The notes under the pieces were generated by a model, which saw nothing but the letters and a program-made list of their open reading frames with translations, made no database searches and was not told the origin of the DNA. Source: a virus (taxonomy: Duplodnaviria > Heunggongvirae > Uroviricota > Caudoviricetes). Taken from it: 16,650 nt of DNA. Below, in pieces: positions 6,895 to 13,256 of the stretch (position 1 is its first letter; each line of letters begins with the position of its first letter). Location of the stretch: the IMG/VR virus record IMGVR_UViG_2737471869_000028, positions 1-16,650 of that record, one strand, 5' to 3'. A program made the position numbers and the translations under genes.

Positions 6895-7278
6895 ATGACA
6901 CGCAGAACTCAGTTCAAAGGCAATTCTCGTTCTCGTCGTCGTGAGCGTTTAAAGGCAAAGGCATTAGCTAACGGCGTACTGGCCCGCGAAGAAGCAATAA
7001 GTTCAGAAGTATTACACCGCCCAACTCTAAGTAGAGCGCAGATTCAGGCTAAAGGTACTCACGAAACGCCTGATCGCATAGAAGACGCTAAGCCAATTAA
7101 GTTCATGGCACAGGACGTGATCTGGCAGCAGGAAGAATACAGACGCAATCTGGAGCGAGCGGCCATTGTGTACGCGAATGAGTTTGGACATAAGCAACCA
7201 GAAACTGGTGTATGTCTTCCAAATGTAGCTCTTTACGCGGCAGGCTACCGGAAATCCAAACAACTGACAGCAAGATGA
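6895..7278 (+). CDS. N: N-type antitermination protein (P22 gene 24-like), 128 aa from the internal ATG
   Basis: Arginine-rich motif near the N-terminus (MTRRTQFKGNSRSRRRERLKAKA); C-terminus PNVALYAAGYRKSKQLTAR parallels P22 N (PGVALYAAGHRKSKQITAR) as I recall it; ATG at 6895 has a strong CAGGAGG Shine-Dalgarno, whereas the track start at 6829 has none. Confidence 0.8.
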   Translation: MTRRTQFKGNSRSRRRERLKAKALANGVLAREEAISSEVLHRPTLSRAQIQAKGTHETPDRIEDAKPIKFMAQDVIWQQEEYRRNLERAAIVYANEFGHKQPETGVCLPNVALYAAGYRKSKQLTAR

Positions 7279-7336
7279 CTTGTGTTGGTCGCCAGAAAAT
7301 GAAATTAGGCAGCAAACCACTTATTTGAGGTGATAT

Positions 7337-7807
7337 ATGACAAAATCATGGAGCGTACCTTTTCCTGAATCAGAAACTGAACATGATGGAATGCCTGTTT
7401 TCTGGAGATTCCAGGCGACAGTTGAAGAAGATGGGATAAAAATATTCGCACTTCAATATATAGCTTTTCATCAGACAGAGCATTATGCATGGTTGGTTCC
7501 TGCGCATTGGATTGTTAATTTTAAACCAGCACCAAATCAGTGGTTACAGGAATGGAAACAAAGGAGAAATAGATATGCAATTAAGAAAGTAGCAAAAAAT
7601 GCAGAAAGATCTTTTGCATTCCCAACGAAGAAACTTGCCATTGAAAGTTTATTGCGCCGGAAGAAATACCATTTAATGAGAATCAAACAAGATTTGGCTG
7701 TTGTATCAACTCTTGTTGATGGTATGAAGAATATTGATACATCAACACCAGATATTGAATATAACTTTGGACACAACCAAGAAACAGAAAATTGGGTATT
7801 TTATTAG
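7337..7807 (+). CDS. Hypothetical protein (156 aa), AT-rich accessory gene immediately downstream of N
   Basis: ORF with GAGGTGA Shine-Dalgarno; no recognisable motif; occupies the ral/sieB-like position of the pL operon; composition looks AT-rich by eye. Confidence 0.5.
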   Translation: MTKSWSVPFPESETEHDGMPVFWRFQATVEEDGIKIFALQYIAFHQTEHYAWLVPAHWIVNFKPAPNQWLQEWKQRRNRYAIKKVAKNAERSFAFPTKKLAIESLLRRKKYHLMRIKQDLAVVSTLVDGMKNIDTSTPDIEYNFGHNQETENWVFY

Positions 7808-8276: not shown

Positions 8277-8565
8277 TAAGCGTGAAATATCGCAAATAAT
8301 CGCAAGTTTTACTGATGAAGATTACGAGCGAATCAACAGTGAAGTTGATCGCCTCTGCAAACGTTGCGACCCAATAAGCGAAATGCTTCGCTCATATAAA
8401 CCAGATGAACACACTAAGGACGCTATCGACTGGCTGGAAGATGATGACTGTAACTATCAGGAAAAAGCCGCTGAATGGTTCTGGGATGCAATAACCGAAA
8501 GAGTTAAGGCTGAATATGCCTTCGCAATATTCAAACGCAGACACATTTTTGGAGAAGCAGCATGA
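8254..8565 (+). CDS. Hypothetical protein (103 aa) upstream of recT
   Basis: ORF with AGGAGAAAG Shine-Dalgarno; its stop overlaps the recT start (ATGA at 8562-8565). Confidence 0.5.
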   Translation: MMILTLNDKREISQIIASFTDEDYERINSEVDRLCKRCDPISEMLRSYKPDEHTKDAIDWLEDDDCNYQEKAAEWFWDAITERVKAEYAFAIFKRRHIFGEAA

Positions 8566-9473
8566 GCAATATCGTTGAATTCGTTAAACAGCAAGAGCAG
8601 TTATTCTGCGGAGCATTGACTGAACAGACGGTGACATGGGCTAAGGAAAGCCAGTTTGCAATTCAGTATTTCCAGAAAAATGATTACCTGGCTAAAACAG
8701 CACTGGCAAATCCAACCAGCGCACAGAACGCCATCATCAATGTTGCGGCGATCGGCATCACCTTAAACCCGGCTAGCAAACTGGCTTATCTAGTTCCGCG
8801 CGACGGCATGGTGTGCCTTGATATCAGTTACATGGGATTGCTCCATATTGCAATGGAGTCTGGTGTTATCTCATGGGGTCAGGCAAAACTTGTTCATGCT
8901 AACGATACCTATGAGTCAAACGGGCTTGATAAAGCACCAACCCATAAATACAACGCCTTCGGTGATCGTGGTGATATCGTTGGCGTTTACTGCACAGTTA
9001 AGACGCCGGCAGGTGATTATCTAACGGAAGAGATGAGTCTGGCTGAAATTGAGGCTGTAAGGAAAACAAGCAAGGCAGCATTCAGCGATAAAGGACCATG
9101 GGTAAATCACTGGAATGAGATGGCGCGAAAGACGGTCGTAAAGCGTGCAAGCAAGTATTGGCCTAAGGCATCACGTCTTGATAGTGCTATTCACGTACTA
9201 AACGAAGAAGAAGGTGTATGGACTGAACCAGTTATGCCGCACAAATCAGAGGAAGATATCCGCGAAGATGAACGGAAACGCCAGCAGGAAATAACGGATA
9301 AAGCACAACTTCTTTGTGATGAAATGGCTCAGGCAGAAAACATGGATGATTTGAAGCGATATTTTGCAGAAGCATATCGCCTGACATCTGGAATGAAATT
9401 GCAGCAGAACATACAAGCCATTTACATAGAATGCAAAGCGAAACTGGAGGTTGCCAGTGAGCAAACTGTATGA
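8562..9473 (+). CDS. recT: RecT-family single-strand annealing protein
   Basis: 303 aa; GPWVNHWNEMARKTVVKRASKYWP matches the Rac RecT region GPWVTHWEEMAKKTAIRRLFKYLP as I recall it. Confidence 0.85.
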   Translation: MSNIVEFVKQQEQLFCGALTEQTVTWAKESQFAIQYFQKNDYLAKTALANPTSAQNAIINVAAIGITLNPASKLAYLVPRDGMVCLDISYMGLLHIAMESGVISWGQAKLVHANDTYESNGLDKAPTHKYNAFGDRGDIVGVYCTVKTPAGDYLTEEMSLAEIEAVRKTSKAAFSDKGPWVNHWNEMARKTVVKRASKYWPKASRLDSAIHVLNEEEGVWTEPVMPHKSEEDIREDERKRQQEITDKAQLLCDEMAQAENMDDLKRYFAEAYRLTSGMKLQQNIQAIYIECKAKLEVASEQTV

Positions 9474-13042: not shown

Positions 13043-13256
13043 CCGCTTCATGGTGCTGAACACACCTTCGAAAGCGGAAACCGCACCCGTCAGTCATGCG
13101 GATTTTTTATGTCCATTTTTCAGATATGGTCGGGTAGCGCGTATACCGAAAAACAGCCGCAAGGCTAAGGATGCGGGCCGAACTTTCGACGGTGTTCAAG
13201 TACCTGACCACCCTGCTGAACACAGGGTAATCTGAACGAATCGAAAGGACATAAAA

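Follow-up and report, generated by a model that had tools for sequence, protein, structure and literature searches.

The E. coli prophage analysed here carries, immediately behind its N antiterminator gene, the last 53 nt of a different N gene, of the phage 21 type, placed out of frame with the resident one. We hold it very probable that this remnant is a non-coding recombination scar, which has since spread as an exchange site, and that the 17-codon frame lying on it most likely has no functional product. The feature is of a known kind, in which the piece of a gene left at a mosaic joint appears to serve as a boundary sequence. Positions refer throughout to the window, i.e., the whole stretch of 16,650 nucleotides that was analysed, and those of the features at and around the joint are collected in Table 1.

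Table 1. Position, strand, and distinguishing marks of the features discussed in the text; coordinates are those of the window unless another record is named
Feature	Position	Strand	Remarks
nutL boxB hairpin GCGCTGACAAAGCGC	6751-6765	+	Exact match to a 15-mer 5' of P22 gene 24 (L222:346-360)
N antiterminator gene	6895-7278	+	127 aa; 933W/H-19B/BP-4795 type; Pfam PF25694 N_peptide, phrog_271
P22-type C-terminal tail segment of N (last 21 codons)	7213-7275	+	Delimited by megablast start point, alignment, and haplotypes
Recombination breakpoint	7275-7278	+	GTGA/ATGA microhomology; from alignments and junction variants
17-codon frame MTCVGRQKMKLGSKPLI (then stop)	7275-7328	+	ORF on the remnant, out of frame with N
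53-nt remnant of the 21-type N 3' end	7276-7328	+	Near-identity to in-frame 21-type N ends
Shine-Dalgarno GAGGTG and downstream ATG	7327-7339	+	Overlaps the TGA of the remnant
156-aa downstream gene, function unassigned	7337-7807	+	phrog_1636; follows intact 21-type N in vB_EcoP-611R6
Lambda att core GCTTTTTTATACTAA	15306-15320	-	Same as the lambda core
Decayed lambda copy of the remnant	NC_001416 ~34358-34394 (L004 ~359-395)	-	Upstream of orf28

The gene upstream of the remnant could be recognized as N from a profile score above the curated cut-off (Pfam N_peptide; E value, 1.6e-15; 57.9 bits against a cut-off of 27.9), together with the presence of a nut boxB upstream. Its product is 100% identical to the N protein of BP-4795 and 97.6% identical to that of 933W. 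The C-terminal end of the protein (...LPNVALYAAGYRKSKQLTAR, followed by the stop codon) closely resembles that of P22 gp24 (...LPGVALYAAGHRKSKQITAR, followed by the stop codon, as read from AB362338), the two agreeing at 17 of the last 20 positions, as expected from the original prediction that N ends like the P22 gene 24 protein. Different from P22 gene 24, however, the middle part of the resident N is of the 933W/H-19B type and longer, even though the arginine-rich motifs of the two proteins look similar by visual comparison. The likeness to P22 includes, besides the tail, nutL, since the boxB 15-mer, which we take to be P22 boxB-left, is identical in the two phages. The description of the region as a P22-like N/nut is thus appropriate for boxB and for the tail, but not for N overall, which is of the 933W/BP-4795 type, with P22-like sequence at its ends only. 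At the nucleotide level, the P22-type tail segment is common to N genes of the HK97 type and to those with a P22 body or a 21 body, and megablast matches to phages whose N bodies differ start at window position 7213.

The frame on the remnant opens where N closes, as had been predicted: its ATG (7275 to 7277) overlaps the TGA of N (7276 to 7278) in the tetranucleotide ATGA, the frame being -1 relative to N and starting at the last N codon. Of the 54 nt of the frame, 53 are shared with the stretch that ends the 21-type N of vB_EcoP-611R6 in frame, and 52 with the imm21 N of DE3; furthermore, the region from 7276 to 7339 aligns without gaps to the 3' end, the stop codon, and the ribosome-binding site of both these genes. 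With lambda N, instead, the identity is limited to 32 of 54 nt, from which it follows that the source of the remnant was of the 21 type and not of the lambda type. At the amino acid level, 15 to 16 of the 17 residues encoded by the remnant agree with the 21-type tail and 11 with the lambda tail; full-length lambda N is available as PDB entry 6GOV. When the lambda 54-mer was slid ungapped over both strands of the window, the top score coincided with the frame (next best, 28/54), and the same occurred with the lambda 17-aa tail over all six frames of the window (next best, 7/17). Judging from these comparisons, the similarity of the region from 7275 to 7328 to the 3' ends of 21/lambda N genes is, decisively, far beyond chance, contrary to the lack of nucleotide similarity that would have refuted the original prediction. 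Thus, the vestige of a lambda/21-type N end that had been suspected just after N could be recognized, and the close match claimed for it is found with the 21-type tail but not with the lambda tail.

The original prediction also held that the same ancestral tail appears twice, once in frame and once as a vestige, and this part is not supported, as BLASTP detects no similarity of the P22-type tail to that of the 21/lambda type. The only regions of the two kinds of protein that BLASTP aligns are the N-terminal arginine-rich ones, never the tails, and the alignments are weak (E = 0.012 to lambda and 49 to the 21-type N). The two are therefore alternative tails rather than two copies of one, and the copy on the remnant lies out of frame with a resident N whose own P22-type tail is unrelated to it. 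What the remnant does share, at the nucleotide level, is homology to the end of a gene that is intact elsewhere, which is a property of a scar.

Alignment of the N genes placed the breakpoint at 7275/7276, i.e., at the N stop codon. The similarity to the 21-type N is lost sharply to the left of 7276, where the window is unrelated to it, whereas to the right the two are identical. In many relatives the joint reads ...GCG AGG TGA CTT GTG, and the corresponding part of the 21-type N reads ...GGT GTG ACT TGT, so that the breakpoint falls inside a GTGA microhomology (P22-type ...AGG TGA versus 21-type ...GGT GTG ACT). The window features ATGA where many relatives feature GTGA, and its ATG derives from a synonymous change of AGG to AGA in N, the last codons of which are CGG AAA TCC AAA CAA CTG ACA GCA AGA TGA. 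Among the relatives, we could notice the junction variants AGATGA, AGGTGA, AAATGA, and AGATAA.

Both parental arrangements exist, and intact versions of either form are present in relatives. In vB_EcoP-611R6 (ON470589), an intact 21-type N of 99 aa, ending with ...GVTCVGRQKMKLGSKPLI and its stop codon, stands 8 nt ahead of the 156-aa gene that also occurs downstream of the remnant in the window. The N gene of Salmonella phage 146851_sal4, which has 85% nucleotide identity to the N gene of the window, ends with TAA without any remnant and is followed by sieB on the opposite strand; in P22, too, gene 24 is followed by sieB/esc with no remnant, different from the resident N. The sharp breakpoint, the unrelated sequence opposite to it, and the existence of both parental arrangements are further properties of a scar. 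We infer that an N gene with a P22-type tail and its own stop codon was joined by illegitimate recombination, at the 4-nt microhomology GTGA, to a genome bearing a 21-type N, and that the last 53 nt of the displaced 21-type gene were left behind. The lambdoid mosaic junctions with gene remnants, ascribed to illegitimate recombination followed by selection for function, show the same sharp breakpoint at a gene boundary and a microhomology of 2 to 4 nt; as in the joint described here, a piece of the displaced gene is kept and both parental arrangements are found in relatives. There is no essential difference between them and the present joint, the scar of which is unusually widespread and accompanied by sister scars of several lengths.

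The diffusion of the junction was examined with three pattern scans. The first scan of IMG/VR was anchored in the 21/lambda tail and fixed 15 nt of the block, which introduces an ascertainment bias; the second scan of IMG/VR was anchored in the P22-type tail only, with the remnant left unconstrained; and the third was run on species-representative genomes. Among 130 N genes with a P22-type tail, the remnant occurs at the identical junction in 47, to which 2 with a diverged 3' half are to be added, while 73 have no remnant and 8 have a longer remnant located 355 to 1032 nt further on, after inserted genes. The identical junction is found behind at least four N bodies (H-19B/933W type, HK97 type, P22 body in E. 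albertii, and 21 body), and the full tail-plus-remnant segment is present in 639 of 5426 complete E. coli genomes; the junction was absent from the other genera sampled (Pseudescherichia and Enterobacter). Because of its occurrence in so many genomes and behind different N bodies, the joint is not specific to this prophage: it is old, widely shared, and common in E. coli lambdoid prophages, and does not represent an event of the prophage analysed here.

The last 63 nt of the N genes with a P22-type tail (7213 to 7275 in the window and homologous positions in L007 to L219) were observed to be a diversity hot spot, with a pi of 0.06 to 0.095, almost all synonymous, versus 0.01 to 0.03 in the N body. 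Identical haplotypes of this tail are met whether or not the remnant follows, and the sequence 3' of the stop codon is of at least seven kinds. The sharing of haplotypes between N genes with and without the remnant indicates that exchange recurs at the N stop codon.

Scars of other lengths derive from the same 3' end. An HK022-type nun gene, identified from its C terminus and from the mEp235 annotation, precedes a terminator-like hairpin (CCCACTTCGGTGGGTTTTTT), beyond which lies a 31-codon remnant (...IYY[SR]KPRSEMGVTCVGRQKMKLGSKPLI) of the 21-type N 3' end, and the same arrangement of hairpin and 31-codon remnant is shown by a 107-aa gene in the N position. The longer scar linked to nun was observed at loci L011, L043, L071, L083, L084, L107, L118, and L124; in L011, nun lies about 150 nt before the block, and these nun genes end with ...HQRNPNKKWS and a stop codon. 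The nun C terminus ...NHAHQRNPNKKWS agrees with the residues N97 to S109 treated in PMC5386594.

Phage lambda itself presents a decayed copy between sieB and orf28 (...CTTTACTACCGCAA-TCCAC-TATTTAAGGTGATATATG), which corresponds to the long remnant with an internal deletion of 62 nt between the repeats GCAAGCCAC and GCAAACCAC. Decay is also visible in L153, where the copy is truncated at its 5' end, in L185, where the 3' half of the remnant is replaced by a lambda-like allele, and in L188, where TAA in place of TGA turns the first codon into GTA and leaves no start codon. The decay in these lineages, together with the lack of expression signals of its own, is again what characterizes a scar. 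A nested scar was observed in the IMG/VR contig L206, at about 100 nt before the block: two copies of the 3' end of the block with the ribosome-binding site (GGCAGCAAACCACTTATTTGAGGTGATATATG) stand about 90 nt apart, and a second, partial remnant is joined to the start of a gene of the MEEQAN type. Finally, in-frame hybrid N genes, in which a 21-type tail (RSEMGVTCVGRQKMKLGSKPLI) closes a body of the lambda type (...QIESNLQRIERKNQRTWYSKP), were observed in L016, L021, L022, and 22 other loci, and their presence in prophages indicates that, within functional N genes, crossovers also take place a short way upstream of the block.

Considered as a block, whether in frame or vestigial, the 53 nt are almost invariant in 113 loci, with both flanks variable. 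Upstream of the block we could distinguish at least five module classes, and downstream of it at least six unrelated genes, namely, an orf28-like gene (MEEEFE, 28 aa) and genes whose products begin with MTKSWS (156 aa), MSSIRL (207 aa), MEFHES (83 aa), MRVKTM (80 aa), and MEEQAN (149 aa). Five of these genes follow the block both in frame and as a remnant behind the P22-type tail, and the MEEQAN gene is found behind remnants only. Moreover, polymorphisms of the block, such as ATG/ATA/ATT at codon 9 and a diverged ...AGTAAGCTACTGTATGAG 3' allele, are common to the in-frame and the vestigial contexts. In these respects the block resembles a boundary sequence mediating module exchange, being a short conserved stretch between alternative, non-homologous modules, whose flanking modules reassort freely and whose polymorphisms are common to both contexts. 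To the left of the downstream gene, the block is the only homology between the remnant-bearing phages and those with a 21-type N, which, taken with the reassortment, would imply crossovers inside the 53 to 64 bp of the block.

The minimal homology for Red- or RecA-dependent recombination is about 30 bp (PMC2327257), a length which the block exceeds, and a gene of the RecT recombinase family is present in the prophage (8562 to 9473). In the modular theory, short conserved boundary sequences, or linkers, have been proposed to target homologous module exchange (PMC3233612, PMC2327257). As in the linker model, an island of near-identity of 53 to 64 bp separates non-homologous modules, and all the tested upstream and downstream combinations have been found; different from it, the linker is here no intergenic signal but the coding 3' end of one N allele, and is non-coding beside another. 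The scar, together with the adjacent ribosome-binding site, provides this island to phages otherwise unrelated at N and at the downstream genes, and we suggest that the island acts as a homologous crossover site at which N modules are reshuffled against downstream modules.

No expression signal was recognized on the remnant. No Shine-Dalgarno sequence before 7275 and no X XXY YYZ slippery heptamer in the last N codons could be found on reading the sequence by eye; the RNA fold of the region from 7240 to 7345 was no better than that of shuffled sequences (z = +0.44); and neither a promoter or terminator match nor an Rfam family match was found at the remnant. Two minus-strand ORFs (7027 to 7320 and 7305 to 7490), considered as candidate antisense genes, had no PHROG family match and were taken as spurious. 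As for diversity, the private changes in the 49 sampled remnants were a replacement of Leu with Ser, one of Gly with Asp, and a change of TGA to TAA that destroys the start, with no indels; three changes are too few for a selection test, and the copies are closely related and exchange alleles with in-frame copies. In four collinear sets, the pi of the remnant (0 to 0.02) is lower than that of the adjacent 63-nt N tail but equals the background of the N body and of the downstream gene (0.006 to 0.03). The lower pi compared to that of the N tail and the small number of mutations could be a hint of constraint; however, the diversity outlier is the N tail, not the remnant.

These data bear on the possibility that the 17-codon frame is translated by termination-reinitiation at ATGA/GTGA, either as a relay that brings ribosomes to the downstream Shine-Dalgarno sequence or as a micropeptide mimicking the 21/lambda-type N end. 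The perfect overlap of stop and start, the frame open in 48 of the 49 sampled remnants with its stop inside the downstream Shine-Dalgarno sequence, and the few private mutations would all fit such a mechanism; coupling of this kind occurs naturally where the 21-type N ends at that same Shine-Dalgarno sequence, a motif that is conserved behind in-frame N tails and annotated as a ribosome-binding site at the equivalent position in KU238070. Nevertheless, each of these features goes back to the in-frame ancestor, in which GTG is the Val codon of ...GVTCV: the overlap, which is ATGA in the window, GTGA in many relatives, and of the GTAA type in L188, is explained by the GTG ACT ancestry, and the identity of the first codon (ATG, GTG, or GTA) is set by synonymous changes in N. 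The missing upstream Shine-Dalgarno sequence, a remnant diversity that does not fall under the local background, and the replacements of Gly with Asp in one remnant and of Leu with Ser in another argue against translation as well. In addition, the downstream gene is kept in lambda and in L153 despite truncated copies, and these decayed copies indicate that the downstream gene can do without the block. Translation by reinitiation is on the whole improbable. If the remnant were under selection, either because reinitiation couples the downstream gene to N or because it frees a 21/lambda-type C-terminal peptide acting on RNA polymerase, this would explain why the block is intact behind many unrelated N-position genes, but we regard it as decidedly improbable.

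It is less probable still that the block has been kept as a cis-acting nucleic-acid element on which expression of the pL operon depends, be it for binding a protein, for processing the RNA, or for terminating or pausing transcription. An island of near-identity between variable flanks in more than 100 loci could be read in this sense; the in-frame block, however, simply codes for the N C terminus, most of the N genes with a P22-type tail lack the element behind them, and in lambda the greater part of it is deleted; moreover, its structure does not exceed that of shuffled controls, and neither a terminator or promoter nor an Rfam family was matched. A programmed -1 ribosomal frameshift, which would add the 21-type tail to some N molecules in a two-tailed protein and for which the -1 frame starting at the last N codon is suggestive, was rejected as having hardly any probability, given the absence of a slippery heptamer, the synonymous variation of the terminal codons (ACA GCA AGA / ACG GCG AGG / GCA AAA) with no conserved slip site, the lack of a stable downstream structure, and the N genes with the same tail that have no remnant (73/130). 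The reading of the remnant as a non-coding scar is therefore the one that we retain.

The window represents an E. coli prophage at att-lambda, with ybhC adjoining, and the lambda-type int, xis, and att that had been predicted were confirmed, Int and Xis being 99% identical to those of lambda (354 of 356 and 71 of 72 residues, respectively). It had been further proposed that the joint marks the splicing of an N/nut module into a lambda/21-like backbone, which does not agree with the data: int and xis are about 7 kb from a joint that recurs in hundreds of E. coli genomes (639/5426), and comparison of the whole window revealed many further mosaic breaks between N and int. Since the joint is ancient and shared and further breaks intervene, it tells nothing specific on a lambda/21 backbone tied to int/xis. 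In the immunity region, between cI (4241 to 4945) and N, we observed a HigB/RelE-type toxin gene (5082 to 5369, plus strand; Pfam PF09907, E value of 4.5e-30), overlapped by 4 nt by a gene for a 218-aa protein with a weak helix-turn-helix match (5366 to 6022, plus strand); the pair is a moron resembling a toxin-antitoxin system. A match to the Rfam family sRNA-Xcc1 (RF02221) was observed upstream of xis, in the early-left region, at 13128 to 13217 on the plus strand (64.3 bits versus a gathering threshold of 53; E value, 6.7e-10).

No annotation of the remnant was present in the records inspected (933W, ST2-8624, an Stx1 phage, and mEp235), and no mention of it was found in the literature searched, the scope of which left out the older primary papers on H-19B, 933W, HK022, and HK97, so that a prior description is possible. 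While the scar matters little for function, it is a clean example of how lambdoid mosaics arise and propagate, in which one illegitimate joint would have produced a scar and the scar, in turn, a portable patch of homology for the reassortment of N/nut (or nun) against early-left genes. With respect to annotation, no gene should be called at the 17-codon ORF, and identity around the N 3' end does not reveal how closely the modules on either side of it are related, be it in Stx prophages or in others of E. coli.
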